64,000 nt of DNA, from the NCBI GenBank assembly GCA_964016885.1, contig OZ024745.1, forward strand, positions 105,338,001 to 105,402,000, read 5' to 3'. The translations under genes were made by a program, and so were the position numbers. Below, one piece after another: positions 4,189-48,060 of this stretch. Source of the stretch: Eledone cirrhosa. Taxonomy: Eukaryota. Each line of letters starts with the position of its first letter. Position 1 is the stretch's first letter. Below the pieces are notes generated by a model. The model was not told where the DNA came from. It did not search any database and was given only the letters and a program-made list of their open reading frames with translations.

Positions 4189-4849
4189 AGTATGTATGTA
4201 TGCATGTATATGCATATGTATATATATGGTCATGTAACATATATATATATATCTTAGTCTTAGATTCTTCCGCGCCATTCGGCGCATCGAAGATTAAGTA
4301 CTCGCCAACGGTCACGATCAGCGGCAAATATTGATTAATAGTTATATTTACTCTTGAAAGTATTAAAAAAAATAAAAAAAACACTGAATGAGTGAAAGAA
4401 AAAATATTGACTTTTATTAATAATTCTTGAAATGCTACTGCTGTTATTATGTATAATGTTTTACCTTACCTTATAAAATTGCATATTGGTTCTTTTATAT
4501 AGTAAGTTAATCTCACGATTTAGTTCGGTTTTAAAAGGTCTTTGTATAACTTTAATTTTCTAAATTTGCGATTTGAAATGCATCCTGGCTTTCAACGCAT
4601 TTAGCTAATTTAAATGATCAGATATGCTGTACGATGTTTACATTCATCGTATACAATTTTCGTTTTATCCAAATGGATTAATTATGTATATTTAACATAA
4701 TTTATACTGTTGCATATAGTAAGATTTGGTTGAATCGAAATAATAATACTTTCAAGAGTAAATATAACTATTAATTAATCCTATATGTAATTGACAACTA
4801 TTGATTTAAACTGTTTGTAATGTTTATAATGTTAATAATTCTAAACATT

Positions 4850-5030
4850 TGGCAGTATCGGTAGAGGGTCGGACGCCATGCTTTCCAGCATAGTTACGTC
4901 CCTTTACGATCTGAGTTCAAATCCCGCCGAGGTTGACTTTGCCTTTCATCCTTACGGGGTCGATAAAATAAAGTACCAGTAATGAACTGGTTTAATTGCT
5001 GGCCTTGTGCCTAAAGTAGAAACAATTATA
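4850..5030 (+). mobile_element. SINE family A
   Basis: Near-identical to 50-226. Confidence 0.9.
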
Positions 5031-5722: not shown

Positions 5723-5795
5723 ATATATTTTATCTGATGAGGACGTACTGAAAAAAACACCACAGTACCTCCGAAATATATATAATAAAACATAT
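5723..5795 (+). ncRNA. Type I hammerhead in PLE 3' fragment (about 5300-5836)
   Basis: TTTTAT CTGATGA GGA-C-GTACTG..CAGTAC-C-TCC GAAA TATATA TA ATAAAA; same layout as 27457-27520. Confidence 0.85.
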
Positions 5796-15479: not shown

Positions 15480-16073
<594 letters not shown>

Positions 16074-21000: not shown

Positions 21001-21877
21001 TTAAGTTGGGGTTATTAAGTAAACAAAGTTATGTAAAACCTGAATACTTGCGTTGGAAGTGGGTTTTTGAATAAAGTTTTGGGTTTTGAATTGTTGGAAT
21101 TAATTTTCTTTTCTTTTTTTTCCGAAATAGAATTTTACATTAATTTAATATTCCATCATTGAAAAACATATAACTCCCCGAAATGTTTGAAATAGAATGA
21201 AGATTGCCGAGAAATATTCAACTAAACTTCAATAGTAATTCTGTTGGGAAAATCTGGAAAAATATAAGGAATATAGCAATATTTATTTCTTAATAATTCT
21301 GATACATATTATGAGAATATTTCAGATATTAAATTTTCGTCTATATATTTTAATTTAAATATTGCTGTTTTGCCTTAACTTTAATTTAAATATTGCTATT
21401 TTGTCTCAATTATATCAGCATTCGTTAATCATTATCGATTTGGATGAGTTACGAATCAATACGAGATGGAAAATAATCAATTAGCAACATTTCAGCGAGG
21501 TTAAGTTAAGTACAAAGTTTAGTTGTTTTAATTGCGCTCAATTTAAAAGAACACTCAATTGAAAACTTCAATATTGATACATTTAATAAGATATTGCGAA
21601 TAAGATATTAAGTGGTAACAACAAAAACAAAACAATGAAAATTCTCTTGATATGAATTTTAACCTTGATACTTAACTCAATATGGATACTATGCTATATA
21701 TTTTTTTTGAAAGGTTTCAGCAGGTGATTCAGCTTTAGGTTAATCATGTAGTTGTCAGTTTTGTCAATGATGTTCGATTTTATAGGTATCAGTAGTCACG
21801 TTTCTAAAGGATTCAATCAATTATGTGGTTAGTAGTGTTAGGAAGGATGCTCACTGCTTCTGTGGGGGAGCATTTTT

Positions 21878-22262
21878 GTTTCTACTTTTGGCACAAGGCC
21901 AGCTATTACCCAGTACATTACTGGTACTTTATTTTATCGACCCCGTAGGGATGAAAGGCAAAGTCAACCTCAGCGGGATTTGAACTCAGACTGTAAAGGG
22001 ACGTAACTATGCTAGAAAGCATGGCGTCCGACCCTCTACTGATACTGCCAATCCACCGCCCTTATAGAGTTATAATTGTTTCTACTTTAGGCACAAGGCC
22101 AGCTATTACCCAGTACATTACTGGTACTTTATTTTATCGACCCCGTAGGGATGAAAGGCAAAGTCAACCTCAGCGGGATTTGAACTCAGACTGTAAAGGG
22201 ACGTAACTATGCTAGAAAACATGGCGTCCGACCCTCTACTGATACTGCCAAACCACCGCCCT
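21878..22262 (-). mobile_element. Tandem dimer of SINE family A
   Basis: Two near-identical 200-bp units including the flank CTTATAGAGTTATAAT. Confidence 0.9.
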
Positions 22263-22327
22263 TATAGAGTTATAATGATGTATGGTAGGTGTGGTGACGT
22301 TTTGCTACATATTAAATTTTCGCGCAA

Positions 22328-23094: not shown

Positions 23095-23150
23095 GTGTAT
23101 ATATATATATATAATATATAAGAACAAAAGATGGTTAAAAGAGTTCCATG

Positions 23151-23221
23151 TATTTTATTATGCGCATTTCAAAAACAAATATCATCATGCAATAATATTT
23201 GTGTTTTCATCAGATAAAACA
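23151..23221 (-). ncRNA. Type I hammerhead in element 23120-23324
   Basis: Minus strand: TGTTTTAT CTGATGA ..ACAAATATT..GATATTTGT.. GAAA TGCGCA TA ATAAAATA. Confidence 0.88.
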
Positions 23222-23323
23222 GGAAGACGTGATATGAAGATTAAAAAACACTTGTGGATAGTGCAGTTTTAAATCAACATATCTGCATTGCTTTATTGTA
23301 CTACAATAAAACTCACCTCCTAC

Positions 23324-23737
<414 letters not shown>

Positions 23738-23940
23738 GTATATATATATATATACGAAATAAATATGGTTTTATAAATATAGTTTCCATTTATTTAATAT
23801 CATAAATATACTCCAAATACTTGTTGAGTGCTTTTATATCAGTTATAAATATTTACTCGTTGTTAACCCAACAATTTAAATATAACTTTCCATGTATCTT
23901 GCTCCAATACTGTTGAGCGCTTTATATTATAACTGAAAAA

Positions 23941-25518
23941 TTGGAATTCTTTAAGATTACTTCCTCTTTAAAAGACATACCTCTACCTAGAAACAAAGAC
24001 TTTATAAAACAATTAATAGATAAATCTGACTCTTTTATAAGGAGAATCAGGTGGCGAGCATTCCACTTTGATAAATCTAATATAAATGAAAATGTCTCGG
24101 ACTTAAACAAAGTTTTCAAATCCAAAAGAAATCCACCCCCCAACAAACTTTTATCTGACTTTGAAAACGATATAATTTCTATCATACAAGGAGTCAAATT
24201 CAAGAGAAACTTCAAAGGCCAGGAATATCTGAAAGGCATTAGGGATAATATTGAGAGCTTAGAGAAAACTGAGAAGATCTTGGTAAAATCTGACAAGACC
24301 AACAACCTCTATGGAGTGCAGAAAGACATGTATAATGGCCTCATACTAAAAGAACTGAGGAAAAAGTACAAGGTAGCAGATAAGGCCGAGCTAGAGAAAA
24401 TGAATGTTGAGGCATCTTGTATAATGCACGAGTTGGAAATTGAGAACAGAACACAACCTTTCGTGCCCAGGAAACCGAAGATCAATATGAAAGATCATAA
24501 GAGAAATTTTGAGAATGACTTGCCAGTCAGATTGATTGCACCATCAAAATCGGACCTGGGTAAACTAAGCAAAAACATTCTTGACAGGGTGATACAGCAA
24601 ATTAAAAACTTGAGTTGTTTACCTAACCTGAGCTTGTGGAAGGGAACTGGTGAGGTTGTTGAGTGGTTTAAGCAAATTAAATATAACAATAATAATAAGT
24701 TTATTCAACTTGATATTGCTAACTATTATTCTTCCATTACCCCTAATCTACTAAATAAGGCACTAAATTACGCATTCAAACATACAGACCTAACTAGCAA
24801 TGAAATGCACATTATATTATCGGCTAGGAAAACATTGATAGAATTTAATGACCAACTATGGACCCGAGCAGATAGAGATAACAATTTTGACATTACTATG
24901 GGATCATCCGACTCAGCTCAGGTAACTGACCTTGTGGGCTTATTTTTAATCAATTCGCTGCATAGGAAAATACCTGGTACTACCGGAGGTTTATATAGAG
25001 ATGACATGCTTTTACTTATTGATAATAATAACTCTGAACTAAATAGAAAAAGAAAACAAATTACACAATTTTTTAATCACTTTAATCTAAAAATAGAAAT
25101 CGAGAATAACCATAGAATAGTCAACTTCCTAGATATAACATTAAATCTCAACACATGTCTTCACTATCCATTTCACAAGTTGAATGAAAACTTAAACTAT
25201 GTCAGCTTTAACTCTAACCACCCCAGATCTGTTAAAAAGACTATAGTAAACTCTGTTCAATCACGTATCTCTAGAATCTCATCTAATAAAAAGATTTTCG
25301 ACGAAAAAGCCCATTATTACAATGAAGCGTTAGCTAGAGCAGGATATAGTGATAAAATTATGTACATAGATAAGGATAAACAAATTAAACAAAATAACAA
25401 CTATTTTAATTACGGCCACAACCTTAACAACTATAATAGAAAGCATTACAATAATTCCAAAAGCCATAAAAGAAATAGAACTAGGAATATAATATGGTTC
25501 CCCCCCCTTTCTCACTAA
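23941..25518 (+). CDS. PLE reverse transcriptase (5' part of frameshifted ORF)
   Basis: KSDKT, VRLIAP, QLDIANYYSSI, ITMGSSDSAQVTDL, LYRDD, NFLDITL, SNHP; no ATG at the 5' end of the frame (TTG). Confidence 0.92.
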   Translation: MEFFKITSSLKDIPLPRNKDFIKQLIDKSDSFIRRIRWRAFHFDKSNINENVSDLNKVFKSKRNPPPNKLLSDFENDIISIIQGVKFKRNFKGQEYLKGIRDNIESLEKTEKILVKSDKTNNLYGVQKDMYNGLILKELRKKYKVADKAELEKMNVEASCIMHELEIENRTQPFVPRKPKINMKDHKRNFENDLPVRLIAPSKSDLGKLSKNILDRVIQQIKNLSCLPNLSLWKGTGEVVEWFKQIKYNNNNKFIQLDIANYYSSITPNLLNKALNYAFKHTDLTSNEMHIILSARKTLIEFNDQLWTRADRDNNFDITMGSSDSAQVTDLVGLFLINSLHRKIPGTTGGLYRDDMLLLIDNNNSELNRKRKQITQFFNHFNLKIEIENNHRIVNFLDITLNLNTCLHYPFHKLNENLNYVSFNSNHPRSVKKTIVNSVQSRISRISSNKKIFDEKAHYYNEALARAGYSDKIMYIDKDKQIKQNNNYFNYGHNLNNYNRKHYNNSKSHKRNRTRNIIWFPPLSH

Positions 25519-26153
25519 ACATTAAAACCCACATTGCTAAACTATTTTTTAAAGCTCTTGATAATCGCTTCCCTAGAACACATAGGTATCACTCAATTTT
25601 CAATAGACATACTATAAAACTAACCTACTCATCCACCAAAAATTTAGCGCAAAATATTAATAGAATAAATAACAGGAACTTAAAACCTAGCGATAATAGC
25701 ATAAATAATATCCAAGTTAACAAATGTAACTGTAGAGATAGATCTAAATGTCCGTTAAATAACAACTGCTTAGTTAAAAATATAATATACAACTGTAATG
25801 TTAAAACGGACGTTAATTCTTTTAACTACGTTGGTTCTACATCGACGGAATTTAAACTTCGCTATAACAACCACAATAATTCTTTCACAGATCCATCCAA
25901 AAGATCTTCAACAGCACTATCAGGCGTACTCTGGCAACTTAGGCATGATAACGTTAGATATTCGACGACTTGGAATATAGTTTCAAGGGGGATTCCTTTT
26001 AATTCATCCTCTGAGACATGTAACCTCTGTGCGGAGGAGATATTCTTTATACTAAAATCTAAAAATTCCCTTAATCTACGGACAAATTTATTCAGTTGCT
26101 GCAGACATAGATTGAACTCAACGTTTAAATATAAATTTAAATTTAAAATGTAG
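25494..26153 (+). CDS. PLE linker + GIY-YIG endonuclease (3' part of same ORF)
   Basis: CNCRDRSKCPLNNNCL, IIY..NYVGST..FKLRYNNH, CNLC..E, CRH; joined by 1-nt indel in C8 run 25500-25507. Confidence 0.9.
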   Translation: MVPPPFSLNIKTHIAKLFFKALDNRFPRTHRYHSIFNRHTIKLTYSSTKNLAQNINRINNRNLKPSDNSINNIQVNKCNCRDRSKCPLNNNCLVKNIIYNCNVKTDVNSFNYVGSTSTEFKLRYNNHNNSFTDPSKRSSTALSGVLWQLRHDNVRYSTTWNIVSRGIPFNSSSETCNLCAEEIFFILKSKNSLNLRTNLFSCCRHRLNSTFKYKFKFKM

Positions 26154-27456
26154 TTATGTTTGATTTGATTTGTAATTATTTATGAAAATAGCCGATAAAT
26201 CTTTCGATTTCTTCTTTTTATTAAAACATTCTCTTTATTAAAACATTCTTCATGAATAATTAAACTACCCTAAAAGCTGATGCTCCAAATATATCAAATT
26301 AAATTTTACACTAGATAAACTTCTATATTAAATATAAGAACATATGTAGACCAAATGGGTATCCTAAACTTTTGGAATGATTTCTGCTAGACAGGATTTG
26401 GTAAACAATTTTTGTTTTATCTGTTTCGACTCTGATGCTTATGATGAACTTGGCAATATATTGTCAATTAACTTTGAAAGGCTGATCTCTGTGGCCGATT
26501 TGCGTGGCATACTATGTTTAATTTTTATTATTTTTTAATATTTTGTAATATTTTTATTTTTAATATTAAATGTTTTAGTTTTCTGTTTATTTATTTATTT
26601 ATTTTCTTGTCTCTGATATTTTTATTTTTATTTTTATTTTTATTTTTATTTTTATTTTTATTTTTATTAATATATTGAAATCTGTTCTATATTTCTGCTT
26701 GATCGACAATCATGTAGAGTAAAGAAAAGTATAGTATTGTTAAAATTAATATAGACTCTATATATATGTGTATATATACACACATATATGTATACTTGAA
26801 TTTTTATAGCACAATGAGAATGTTTTCGTGTGAATTGGGAGTTTGTTTATAATTATGATATAAATATATGAATTTTTAAAAACTAGACATAAGATCATTA
26901 CTTTTCACACATTATAGATACATGTCTCATTCCTGAATACTGATATTTACATTATAATGCCTGTTTTATACGAACTAATATTTTCTACAGGATGAAGCAT
27001 AGCGTTTTTAAATTCTACCTCGTTTATGTCTGGTTATTTTTCATTTTCTCTTTTTTCTCTCTATATAACGGCTATTTTCTCTCTTAACTACATACATCTC
27101 TCTTTACATTAATACTAGAGCTAAATAAATAAATAAATAAATAAATAAATGTATCAACCGATACTCAACTTCCTAGTTTCTCTATCTATCTCTATCTATC
27201 TCTTTCTTTTTTTTCCTCTCTCTATATATATTTCTCTCTGTTTCTTTACATGAAGTTCTTCTCTTTATCTATCTTTCTATATCTCTCTATTTAGTCACAT
27301 GCATTTCTTCTTTTTCTTCGTTTCTCTTTCTTTCTTTCTTTTTCTCTTTCTTTTTACAACTGTCCACAATATTTTTTACTGCCAAATCAACCTCCCAAAT
27401 GCAAGGTGATTGAAAGGTATGTCGTATCTATTTATTTATAAGACTGTTTATATTGT

Positions 27457-27520
27457 ATTTTGTCTGAAGAAGGCATAACATATTGTTAATATGATATCCT
27501 TGAAATATATATAACGAAAT
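27457..27520 (+). ncRNA. Type I hammerhead of the 3' pLTR
   Basis: ATTTTGT CTGAAGA AGG..CATATT-GTT-AATATG..CCT-T GAAA TATATA TA|ACGAAAT; cut after 27513. Confidence 0.88.
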
Positions 27521-27732
27521 AAATATGGTTTTATAAATATAGTTTCCATTTATTTAATATCATAAATATACTCCAAATACTTGTTGAGTGCTTTTATATC
27601 AGTTATAAATATTTACTCGTTGTTAACCCAACAATTTAAATATAACTTTCCATGTATATATGTATATATATATGTATATATATATATATGTATATTCATA
27701 TATATGTATATATATATGTATATACATATATA

Positions 27733-27763
<31 letters not shown>

Positions 27764-27793
27764 GTATATATATTTATATGTATATATATATAT

Positions 27794-27877
<84 letters not shown>

Positions 27878-27928
27878 GTAGGAGGTGAGTTTTATTGTAG
27901 TACAATAAACAATGCAGATATATATACA

Positions 27929-32454: not shown

Positions 32455-32645
32455 GGGAGGTGAACTGGCAGTATCGGTAGAGCGTCGGACGCCATGCTTT
32501 CCAGCATAGTTACGTCCCTTTACGGTCTGAGTTCAAATCCCGTCGAGGTTGACTTTGCCTTTCATCCTTACGGGGGTCGATAAAATAAAGCACCAGTAAT
32601 GCACTGGGTAATTGCTGGCCTTGTGCCTAAAGTAGAAACAATTAT
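32455..32645 (+). mobile_element. SINE family A
   Basis: Family match; TSD TATTGGGA. Confidence 0.9.
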
Positions 32646-40429: not shown

Positions 40430-41340
40430 TAAAATATCAACTAAAACAGGACAAATCCATTGGGGGTGATCAAAACTACATTCAAAATCTACAAGGAATG
40501 TAATAAGTTGACAGCAACCATGTTGCCTATTTCACACAGTTTATTTTCGCACTTGCTTCAGTTTTACCTATACACAAGCAAAACTCCATAGTTGATCCAT
40601 TATAATATCAATCTATATTATTACCGAACGCCATAAGAAAATGGTATCAACAATCATTAAAAAATATCATACCATGGCTACATGCCAAATGATCAGTTCA
40701 ATCTGGAAAGGCAATTTGGGTTTAGAAGATTTTCTTATTATCTTACCCCAGAATATGGAATAATTACTTGGACATAATTCAAGAAATAACTATCATAGCC
40801 CTCGACATTGAAGGAAGCTTTGACAGAACATTTCACAACATACTTCACGTCTAGGTGAAATGACTTAGTGGGAACCGTTCAGGTATCTGCAAATGTAACT
40901 CAATAGCAGCCGATTAAATTAATTCTTCTATGCTAATCTTCTACTTCGCCAATCATTATTTATTGGCAGTATCGGTAGAGAGTCAGACGTCATGCTTTCC
41001 AGCATAGTTACGTCCCTTTACGATCTGAGTTCAAATCCCGCCGAGGTTGACTTTGCCTTTTATCCTTACGGGGTCGATAAAATAAAGTACCAGTAATGTA
41101 CTGGTTAATTGCTGGCCTTGTGCCAAAAGTAGAAACAATTATTTATCTGAGACAGAAAGGTCAACACTTGGTCCACCCTTGTTTCCGTTTTCATAAGCGT
41201 TGTTTACAATCCCTGCGAAAGTAAGTTGCACATATACGCCAGTGACTTCATGGTATTTACATTTGTAATATCTACAGGTGAAAGGGACCTAAACAGCAGT
41301 CATTCTAAAATTGTAAAATTTAAATCCTAGAGAAAGCTGG
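40430..41340 (+). pseudogene. Decayed LINE reverse transcriptase
   Basis: QFGFR-like, ALDIEGSFDR, GSTLGPPLF, YASD in RT order. Confidence 0.6.
40963..41140 (+). mobile_element. SINE family A inserted in LINE remnant
   Basis: Family match; TSD ATTATTTAT. Confidence 0.9.
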
Positions 41341-43682: not shown

Positions 43683-44149
43683 TAATGTTCCTTGAACTGA
43701 CATATCAAAGGAAATGTTATAGTAAGCGTTACTACGTGAAGTGGCATCTAGATCTGCATATTTCCCCTTTCATTCTGGTATAGATCTAATCTCTTTGATC
43801 ATCAACATCGTCATTGTGGTGTGGTCATCTCTCTCATCCTCATCACACCATTACCAGCCCCAACATCATCACCGCCATCTATGTGTTTACTATAGCTACA
43901 AGAAATAGTAAACACATATTTTTCAAATCACACCCTACAGCCTTAACTGCGTTGAAGAAGGTAGTGCCTTATATAGGAAAGGATGGGCTGGTCATGGATG
44001 GAAGGCCTTTGATCATAGGTCCGCTATATCAGGACCAACTTGGGTTAAAGATAAACAATCACCAACATGATTTTAACCACCGCCCCACCGCCGCCACTAC
44101 CACTGCCGCTCTGACTATGACGATAAAGATAACCAAGAGAAGTATCATC

Positions 44150-46110
44150 AGCAGCAGCTTCCCCCACCACAACCACAAGACCTCCAGCAGCAGTAGCAGT
44201 AGCAGCACCCCACCAGAACCATCCCACCTCCAGTAGCAGTAGCAACACCCCACCGCAACCACACCATCTCCAGCAGCAGTAACAGTAGCAGCTCCCACAC
44301 CACAACCACCCCCACCTCTAGCAGCAGTAGCATCACCCCCACCACAACCACCCCACCCCCAGCAGCAGTAGCAGTAGCATCACCCCCACCACAACCACCC
44401 CACCCCCAGCAGCAGTAGTAGTAGCAGCACCCCCACCACAACCAGCCCCACCTCTAGCAGCAGTAGCAGTAGCAGCACCCCCACCACAACCACCCCACCT
44501 CCAGCAGCAGTAGCATCACCCCCACCACAACCACACCACCCCCAGCAGCAGTAGCAGTAGCATCACCCCCACCACAACCACACCACCCCCAGCAGCAGTA
44601 GTAGTAGCAGCACCCCCACCACAACCACCCCACCTCCAGCAGCAGTAGTAGTAGCAGCACCCCCACCACAACCACCCCACCTCCAGCAGCAGTAGCAGTA
44701 GCATCACCCCCACCACAACCACCCCACCCCCAGCAGCAGTAGCAGTAGCATCACCCCCACCACAACCACCCCACCCCCAGCAGCAGTAGCAGTAGCATCA
44801 CCCCCACCACAACCACCCCACCCCAGCAGCAGTAGCAGTAGCATCACCCCCACCACAACCACCCCACCTCCAGCAGCAGTAGTAGTAGCAGCACCCCCAA
44901 CTCAACCACCCCCACCTCTAGCAGCAGTAGCAGTAGCAGCACTCCCACCACAACCACCCCACCTCCAGCAGCAGTAGCAGTAGCAGCACCCCCACCACAA
45001 CCACCCCACCTCCAGCAGTAGCAGCAGTAGCAGCACCCCCACCACAACCACCCCACCTCCAGCAGCAGTAGCAGTAGCAGCACCCCCACCTCAACCACCA
45101 CCACCTCCAGCAGCAGTAGCAGCACCCCCACCACAACCACCCCACCTCCAGCAGCAGTAGCAGTAGCAGCACCCCCACCTCAACCACCCCCACCTCCAGC
45201 AGCAGTAGCAGTAGCAGCACCCCCACCTCAACCACACCACCTCCAGCAGCAGTAGCAGTAGCAGCACCCCCACCTCAACCACCCCCACCTCCAGCAGCAG
45301 TAGCAGTAGCAGCACCCCCACCTCAACCACACCACCTCCAGCAGCAGTAGCAGTAGCAGCACCCCCACCTCAACCACACCACCTCCAGCAGTAGTAGCAG
45401 TAGCAGCACCCCCACCACAACCACACCACCTCCAGCAGCAGTAGCAGTAGCAGCACCCCCACCACAACCACCCCACCTCCAGCAGCAGTAGCAGTAGCAG
45501 CTCCCACACAACAACCACACCACCACCAGCAGCAGTAGCAGTAGCAGCACCCCCACCTCAACCACCACCAGCTCCAGCAGCAGTAGCAGCACCCCCACCT
45601 CATCCACACCACCTCCAGCAGCAGTAGCAGTAGCAGCACCCCCACCACAACCACACCACCTCCAGCAGCAGTAGCAGTAGCAGCACCCCCACCACAACCA
45701 CACCACCTCCAGCAGCAGTAGCAGTAGCAGCACCCCCACCACAACCACACCACCACCTCCAGCAGCTGTAGCAATAGCAGCAGCCCCACCACAACAACCC
45801 CACCTCCAACAGCAGTAGCAGTAGCAGCACCCCCACCACAACCACCCCACCTCCAGCAGCAGTAGCAGTACCAGCACCCCACCACAACCACCCCACCTCC
45901 AGCAGCAGTAGCAGTAGCAGCACCCCCACCACAACCACCGCATCTCCAGCAGCTGTAGCATCACCCCCACCTCAACCAACCCCACCTCCAGCAACAACAG
46001 CAGCAGTAGCAACAACCCACCACAACCACCCCACCACCAGCAGCAGTAGCAGTAGCAGCACCCCACCACAACCACCCCCACCTCCAGCAGCAGTAGCAGC
46101 AGTAGCAGCA
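44150..46110. repeat. About 45-bp minisatellite (CAGCAGCAGTAGCAGTAGCAGCACCCCCACCACAACCACCCCACCTC)
   Basis: Direct. Confidence 0.95.
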
Positions 46111-46259
46111 GTAAGGATCCACTCCATTAGAATCACTACAAACACCATTCAAACGCTACAAGCAATAATACTACAACGACGGCCCAACAGTTATTCTCCG
46201 CTTCCAGCAGAATCCAATAATATAACTACTAAGCAATACAATAACATCCAGCAGTAACA

Positions 46260-46443
46260 TAAATGACACCAGCACTACCACCATCACCACCATCACCACC
46301 AGCACTACCACCGCCTCTACCACCGCCTCTACCACCACCACTACCACCACCATCACCACTATCACCATCGTCACCATCGTCATCATCATCATCACCACCA
46401 CAACCAACACCACAACCAACACCACCACCGCCACCATCATCAT

Positions 46444-46475
<32 letters not shown>

Positions 46476-48060
46476 CTATCATCACTATCATCACCACCAC
46501 AACCAACACCACCACCGACACCGCCACCACCATCATCATTATCATCACCACCACCGTCTCTCCACCACCGTCATCATCATCGTCATCATCCTCACAACCA
46601 ACACGACCGCCTCCACCACCGCCAACACCACCACCGCCACCACCACCGCTGCCACCAGAGCCACCACTGCCACCTCAGCCGGCAGCAGCAGCAGCACCAC
46701 CACCATCATCATCATCAAAAGCACTACAGCCACCACTGCCACCACCATCACAACCACCATCACCACCACCACCACCACCACCACCATCATCATCATCACA
46801 AGCACTACAGCCACCACTGCCACCACCATCACAACCACCATCACCACCACCACCACCACCACCACCATCATCATCATCACAAGCACTACAGCCACCACTG
46901 CCACCACCATCACAACCACCATCACCACCAAAACCATCACCACCACCACCATCACCACCACCACCATCATCATCATCACAAGCACTACAGCCACCACTGC
47001 CACCACCATCACAACCACCATCACCACCAAAACCATCACCACCACCACCATCACCACCACCACCACCATGGGCTACAATTAAAGGCGGGAAGGAAGAATA
47101 GTGGAAAAAATATAACTAAACAGTAACAAATATTTCAACAGCAAAAAACATCATAAGAATGTACAACAACAACAGTAGCAATGACAACAACAACAACAGC
47201 AGCAACAACGACAACAACAACAGCAGCAATGACAACAACAACAACAACAATAACAGCAACAACAGTGATAACAACAACAACAGCAGCAACAGCGACAACA
47301 ACAACAACAACAGTAGCAATAATGACAACAACAACAATAATAGCAACAACAGTGATAACAACAACAACAACAACAGCAACAACGACGACAACAACAACAA
47401 CAACAGCAGCAACGACGATAACAACAACAACAACAGCAACAACGACAACACCACCAACAACAGCAGCAACAACGACAACAACAACAACAGCAATGACAAC
47501 AACAACAATACTAGCAACAACAGTGATAACAACAACAACAACAACAACAACAGCAACAGCGACAACAACAACAGCAGCAACAACGACAACAACAACAGCA
47601 ACAACAACAACAGCAGCAACAACGACAACAACAACAGCAACAACAACAACAACAGCAACAACGACAACAAGGACAGGAACAACAACAACAACAATAGCAG
47701 CAACAGCAACAATGACAACAACAAGAGCAACACCAGTAACGATGATAACCACCACCACAACCACCACCACCACAACAACAACAACAACAACAACAACAAC
47801 AGCAGCAGCAATGACAAAAAACAATAACAACAACAGCAAAAACAACAACAATGTCAACAACAACAGCAACAATGACAACAACAGTAACAACAACAGCAAC
47901 AACAGAAGTAATGACAACAACAATAACAACAGCAGCAGTAATGACAACTACGGCAACAATGACAACAACAGCAATGACAACCACAACAACAACAACAACA
48001 AAATCAACTACAATCAGCAGCCATGACACCAACGAAGACGTTAACAACAACGAGAGCAAT
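46260..48060. repeat. CAC/CAT then AAC/AGC trinucleotide arrays with higher-order units
   Basis: Direct. Confidence 0.95.

Follow-up and report, generated by a model that had tools for sequence, protein, structure and literature searches.

Insertion ends and the predicted hammerhead cut in a Penelope-like retrotransposon family of Eledone cirrhosa

Does a Penelope-like element (PLE) with a hammerhead ribozyme in its repeats owe its 5′ end to ribozyme cleavage of its RNA template? The question is raised by one copy in a 64,000-nt stretch of the Eledone cirrhosa genome (contig OZ024745.1, forward strand, positions 105,338,001 to 105,402,000; the whole stretch is called the window here, and coordinates count from its first base). 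The features on which the question turns are these, with +1 defined as the base right after the predicted hammerhead cut (23754 and 27514):

23324–23753, no strand: (TA)n target tract, 5′ side
23754–23897, plus strand: remnant of the 5′ pseudo-LTR (pLTR), +1 to +144 relative to the cut; its first base could equally belong to the TA tract
23941–26153, plus strand: ORF of a Hydra-clade PLE, with reverse transcriptase (RT), CxCx5C linker and C-terminal GIY-YIG-type nuclease
26154–27513, plus strand: 3′ UTR with variable simple repeats; in other copies, upstream pLTR of variable length
27456–27521, plus strand: dimer-type hammerhead of type I, its stem III a palindrome and its cut predicted at 27513/27514; recognised by descriptor and backed by compensatory pairs
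27658–27877, no strand: (TA)n-rich target tract, 3′ side

Positions 23754–23897 and 27514–27657 are identical 144-nt repeats, spaced 3760 nt apart, with a hammerhead, and, as the preliminary description of this DNA had stated, the 5′ end coincides with the predicted cut. The start is +1 or +2, since the single A at the junction (TAT-ACG) is common to the element and the TA tract; read-through copies have two As. A simple microhomology at stem III would keep two As, and so is not what the focal copy displays. A start at the ribozyme site is therefore real in this copy. Across the family it does not rise above chance, and it is likely a coincidence: the focal 5′ end is likely an ordinary 5′ truncation, and its match with the cut site does not demonstrate a ribozyme-made template. 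On both sides the focal element is flanked by one and the same 45-nt stretch, the long end of a third hammerhead family (23279–23323 and 27878–27920), in inverted orientation and with an identical break point. This is possibly an inverted duplication of the flank, in which case the focal 5′ end could have been reshaped later.

The family and its hammerheads

Judged by its motifs, the focal element is a defective full-length copy of a new family of Hydra-clade Penelope-like retrotransposons, one that is young and abundant in the E. cirrhosa genome. Its start codon (23941) is lost and its frame is broken near 25500. A start codon at the equivalent place is kept in 36 of 38 sister copies, and 13 of 39 have one 737-aa ORF with YRDD and IIY...YVG, in which RWR lies at position 37, DKT at 118, CNCRDRSKC at 596, CDLC at 694 and CRH at 721. 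One Cys lies between IIY and YVG, CCHH is absent, and the endonuclease (EN) is C-terminal. Several features are those of EN+ Penelope-like elements: a single ORF joining RT and a GIY-YIG-type endonuclease in sister copies (broken in the focal one), partial tandem pLTRs, an inverted 5′-truncated arm, an optional tail and a type I hammerhead motif in the pLTR. Others are those of the Hydra clade, namely RWK-type and DKT motifs, a CxCx5C linker, CxxC and CxH, no CCHH, C-terminal EN and insertion into (TA)n. Atlas look-alikes of the ORF score 0.96–0.98, and some of their clusters carry GIY-YIG or RVT_1; Pfam scans of the ORF gave no family, and a PDB sequence search gave no meaningful match.

Four type I hammerheads emerged when both strands of the window were scanned with a descriptor; their cuts are predicted after 5784, 15872 and 27513 and, on the minus strand, at 23159. 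In the focal one, stem I has 8 bp and stem II is long; CUGAAGA lies at 27464, GAAA at 27502 and the palindromic stem III at 27506–27513, the dimer-type architecture described in PMC4209133. The TA-rich stem IIIs to which the preliminary description had pointed at 5777 and 15865 are real, and they sit in hammerheads of families other than the focal one; the fourth hammerhead has TGCGCATA in stem III instead. Among the best 150 of 260 Rfam matches (E≤1) the hammerhead family is absent, those listed being all repeat-driven. Across 146 distinct hammerhead strings, which are related sequences with part of stem I fixed by the search pattern, pair 2 of stem I is A-U in 57, G-U in 48, G-C in 40 and A-C in 1. 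Pairs 2, 3, 5 and 6 of stem II alternate between G-C and A-U types, and the C-C mismatch between them is fixed. Compensatory changes in both stems indicate that the fold is under selection for something. The conserved hammerhead fold probably has some role. The segment +1..+237 is predicted to fold no more stably than its shuffles (z=-1.5).

Elsewhere in the window, truncated pLTR pieces of three other hammerhead families lie at 5727–5792, 15591–15913 and 23100–23279, with a head-to-head pair at ~15700. At 44149–48013, a long 47/94-nt tandem array gives way to runs of CAC/ACA triplets, and the whole resembles a repetitive coding exon. A 200-nt SINE-like repeat, which we take to be of the kind typical of octopus genomes, has copies at 38–230, 4849–5030, 21876–22276, 32455–32645 and 40962–41142.

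Insertion 5′ ends around the predicted cut

The mapping of 5′ ends was the check that the preliminary description had set beforehand for its linear cut-to-cut monomer, with scattered ends as the outcome that would count against it, and the ends are scattered. Our counts exclude the initial DNA search, which was biased to copies with a whole ribozyme. Among 40 ORF-bearing copies scored from 1062 candidates (search with +145..+547), 27 start upstream of the cut (-34 to about -1940) and 12 downstream of it (about +20 to +148), which leaves the focal copy as the only one to start at the cut. A second sample comprised the first 100 of the 2215 genome matches to the exact post-cut 29-mer (+1..+29), all on C1, mapped against three natural references. 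None starts at +1, one starts at -9, two start in -64..-13 and 35 in -155..-65, with a peak of 13 in -140..-131, upstream of the ribozyme; the remaining 62 extend beyond -155, and 5 of the 100 are ORF-linked. The missing pile-up at +1 disfavours a linear RNA cut there, since a strong stop at +1 would be expected. The peak and a nearby motif have these positions:

27374–27383, plus strand: hot spot of sister-copy 5′ ends (-140 to -131), where a weak hairpin has its 5′ base
27415–27422, plus strand: splice-donor-like motif at -97; of 230 distinct hammerhead contexts, 98 have it 44–47 nt upstream of CUGA

The hot spot lies 35–45 nt upstream of the splice-donor-like motif. In Drosophila virilis Penelope, 46 nt downstream of the start site lies an intron (PMC2377424), whose end is at the hammerhead (PMC4209133). 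From the position of the hot spot and this layout, we infer a candidate RNA start at about -135, which the DNA junctions make likely. Two points bear on it: the coincidence of the hot spot with a hairpin supplies an alternative, and the 62 copies that pass -155 would need priming from a downstream pLTR, or template transfer. The splice-donor-like motif, ~46 nt upstream of the hammerhead core, is common to several families, and a putative intron starting there could span the ribozyme plus both priming sites described below; spliced copies were not seen among 39 ORF-bearing copies, a search of low power.

The census of the 2215 matches tells the same story. GAAA stands 6–12 nt upstream in 2111 of them (~95%), which thus continue into the ribozyme, and CTGA (CUGA) stands 43–49 nt upstream in 1916. 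A base other than A at -1 is found in 11 matches, namely four junctions at +1 (L076, the focal copy, L079 and L081) and seven substitutions. Non-T at -2 is found in 16: six junctions at -1, six small changes in an intact ribozyme and four chimeras. The last (L176, L178, L182 and L183) were considered as jumps at the cut and dropped, as they are chimeras with another hammerhead family through an 8-nt match. Non-A at -10 is found in 28, of which 11 keep the ribozyme and 17 are junction rows from nine events, one of them a 9-unit tandem array and one situated further upstream. The control position at -19 gave 16 matches (four junctions, one small deletion and 11 substitutions), so that +1 and the control have four junctions each (Fisher p=1.0, with the control denominator assumed to be 2000 and its true value at most about 2111). 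These single-position junction counts are small (4, 6, 4). In the larger, commoner variant, C or G stands at -1 in 164 of 27093 matches, and 7 of 30 examined are junctions, or about 0.14%; at its +7 control, non-A occurs in 323 of 38181, and 4 of 30 examined are C/G junctions, or about 0.11%. A control at -20 in this variant was uninformative, the tested base being a subfamily allele (29 of 30 examined, 179 matches).

Total losses run at ~5–6 per base in -12..+1 and likewise in -50..-13. These totals include indels, and hence a 2-fold excess near the cut is possible: if half of the losses were indels, the background would be ~0.12% per base and the cut maybe ~2-fold enriched. In the 100 mapped matches, the background in -64..-13 is only 0.04% per base. 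With about 110 ORF-linked pLTRs (5 in 100, scaled to 2215) and about 0.2% per base, chance alone would yield one ORF-linked start at the cut with a probability of 20–42%.

Two side observations concern sequences that resemble starts at the cut. The second hammerhead-bearing family (16462 matches) has two 3′ ends ~58 nt apart in (TA)n, and its long end has 8 nt in common with the focal post-cut sequence, where the chimeras form. At L344 (G000:C13, ~38431800–38433300), an arm with an intact hammerhead is followed by nine tandem 160-nt units, each consisting of (TA)n and +1..+139. The array is likely the product of unequal exchange between stem III and the flanking TA tract, a process that leaves starts resembling the cut site where no ribozyme is present; alternatively, a small cut RNA may have been the template of repeated jumps.

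Could the focal copy nevertheless record a real but rare route, in which its RNA was cut at the upstream hammerhead while the downstream one stayed uncut, or in which RT jumped the junction? We think this unlikely. The single-A junction, exact to within one base and unexplained by stem-III microhomology, favours that route and counts against an ordinary truncation; moreover, none of the 11 non-A matches at -1 is an intact ribozyme minus an A, 10 junctions fall at +1 or -1 among the 2215 matches, and the fold covaries. Against it stand the equal number of junctions at -19, the missing excess among the 27093 copies of the larger variant and the ease with which chance alone would yield one such full-length copy.

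Two priming sites and the choice of template

The 3′ ends are far more orderly, and fall at two sites:

27563–27564, plus strand: short 3′ end and priming site (+50/51), about half of sister ends
27653–27657, plus strand: long 3′ end and priming site (+140 or +144), the end of the focal copy

In 39 long copies, 13 ends lie at +50/51, 23 at +140/144 and none at the cut, the other three being gapped or interrupted; the ends are placed at an AT or TAT that precedes (TA)n. Internal priming ~144 nt past the cut through short AT matches to (TA)n, as the preliminary description had it, therefore stands for the long site; the second site, at +50/51, it had missed. The about 90 nt between the two sites constitute the PLE tail. 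A short end is joined to a long one in all 31 head-to-head pairs of the 100-copy sample (p about 1e-9 under independence) and in 19 of 20 in the ORF-bearing set, the remaining one joining stem III to a long end; one insertion is common to the two sets. This pairing is a strict version of the "tail at one end" already published (PMC3846280, PMC8557442), and suggests that both target strands prime on one RNA. Two start sites have been shown in vitro (PMC11167929); in a mostly open-access literature, represented by main texts, we found no report linking the one-sided tail or the pairing to PLE twin priming. In seven pairs (L081, L104, L112, L124, L274, L276 and L284) the long arm stops at ~+20 to +80, close to where short ends are primed; two primers on one RNA would be expected to leave this pattern.

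The reading that we consider probable is that the family is copied from RNA continuous across the cut, that the focal 5′ end is an ordinary truncation and that the ribozyme does not set the ends. The element protein would nick both strands of (TA)n, and each of the two 3′-OH ends would then serve as primer at one of the internal sites, probably with a single RNA as template. Both cDNAs would read through the uncut ribozyme, and many would run out at the RNA start, ~135 nt upstream of the cut, or close to it, and then be joined head to head. Longer copies would either originate in the downstream pLTR or involve transfer to a matching pLTR, whether on that RNA or on a sibling RNA, and such transfer would renew the 5′ pLTR at variable length. 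Read-through in itself does not separate uncut RNA from a re-ligated circle.

Renewal is indeed seen. The preliminary description held that both pLTRs of a copy derive from the same unit, and the comparisons agree: among 16 copies whose pLTRs overlap by at least 300 nt, 15 have a 5′ pLTR that matches the 3′ pLTR of its own copy best and one shows a tie, and at subfamily-diagnostic sites in -175..+50 none of 24 copies is discordant. Within-copy matching implies that the repeats are renewed from one lineage, and it is predicted alike by a circle, by a jump within one RNA and by a jump to a sibling RNA.

A circle, in which hammerheads would excise a 3760-nt monomer for ligation and rolling reverse transcription from +50 and +140 would give copies longer than one unit with matching pLTRs, was proposed in 2014 (PMC4209133); for this family we rate it as rather doubtful, slightly more so than the rare cut RNA. 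In its favour, besides the matching just described, are 5′ pLTRs that reach to about -1940 and one copy, L308, with two consecutive ORF-linked pLTRs in tandem. Template transfer explains copies longer than one unit with matching repeats equally well, and transfer between RNAs of one source locus yields the same pLTR match. Moreover, since a circle lacks an end at the cut, it gains nothing from the focal junction, and it leaves the 5′-end peak at -131..-140 unexplained unless a structural pause is assumed. Three inverted pairs (L348/349, L355/356 and L361/362) also count against it, having G at the cleavage base in both arms. By the NUH rule, a G at this base would not cut. Such pairs are also explicable by gene conversion. 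They do not establish an uncuttable lineage in the focal variant, since in 6 of 6 pairs checked there the G was private to one arm and the partner had A.

A further and tentative idea, one that we hold with low confidence, combines these elements. A single RNA, possibly a hammerhead-made 3.76-kb circle, would be primed twice by a dimeric protein, at +140/144 and +50/51, one per strand, and the focal copy would be a rare record of a cut, unligated template. Fixed twin priming, if true, would explain the one-sided tail, the head-to-head arms and pLTR renewal at once.

The linear cut-to-cut monomer as usual template, its UAUAUAUA end steering target choice, is contradicted and very improbable: it predicts exactly the shape of the focal copy and can cite 20 copies that end at stem III in (TA)n, but there is no pile-up at +1, of the 39 ORF-bearing copies none ends at the cut and 36 use +50 or +140/144, and a related family with TGCGCATA in stem III also occupies TA tracts. 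The proposed mimicry of the target by the stem-III end accounts for those 20 ends (one of them an internal rearrangement), against 8590 read-through copies (0.23%). In all 11 resolved cases they are paired with a long arm, which mostly spans the cut; stem III can rarely substitute for the short site through its TA run, and cleavage is not needed. An apparent excess of stem-III ends in subfamilies with a paired stem-II base (19:1) disappeared against the denominators (7360:1230, p=0.34).

Relation to known systems

The idea of a monomer or circle in the preliminary description is the cut-and-circle model published for PLEs and non-LTR retrozymes (PMC4209133; PMC7229834), with which the focal family has in common the same type I, dimer-type hammerhead in both pLTRs. 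In these sources circles are shown for small retrozymes, not for autonomous PLEs, and the focal family is known from DNA alone. The role of the hammerhead in PLEs and the renewal of pLTRs are treated as open questions in PMC8557442 and PMC2377424; this family is young and abundant enough to probe both from DNA, with a candidate RNA start upstream of the ribozyme as a further by-product.

The closest relatives are the C-terminal EN+ PLEs of the Hydra clade (Craig et al. 2021, PMC8557442). The focal family has the same RWR (RWK-type) and DKT motifs, the same CxCx5C, the same CxxC/CxH around the nuclease E and N and no CCHH, and resembles them in its pLTR hammerhead, (TA)n insertion, partial tandems with an inverted 5′-truncated arm and tail at one end. 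It differs in its unit of 3.76 kb, owing to a 1.3-kb 3′ UTR, whereas the Hydra families described there are mostly below 3 kb; in a tail of about 90 nt rather than 30–40; and in tens of thousands of related pLTR ends in the genome, unlike the clade as described in that account.

For the mechanism, the nearest comparison is PAc, a Poseidon PLE of Anolis carolinensis (Frangieh et al. 2024, PMC11167929), in which two internal initiation sites downstream of the hammerhead likewise define the tail, targets are AT-rich as here, and both strands are cut and extended in vitro. As reported there, uncut RNA is used, the hammerhead cut is not needed, and no reads end at it. Our finding that insertion ends do not record the cut agrees with this one in vitro study. 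The two systems part on one point: in PAc no difference in start site was seen between strands, whereas paired arms of the focal family always use different sites, and the pairing of short with long ends (31/31) turns twin priming on a single RNA into a prediction that is sharp and can be tested.
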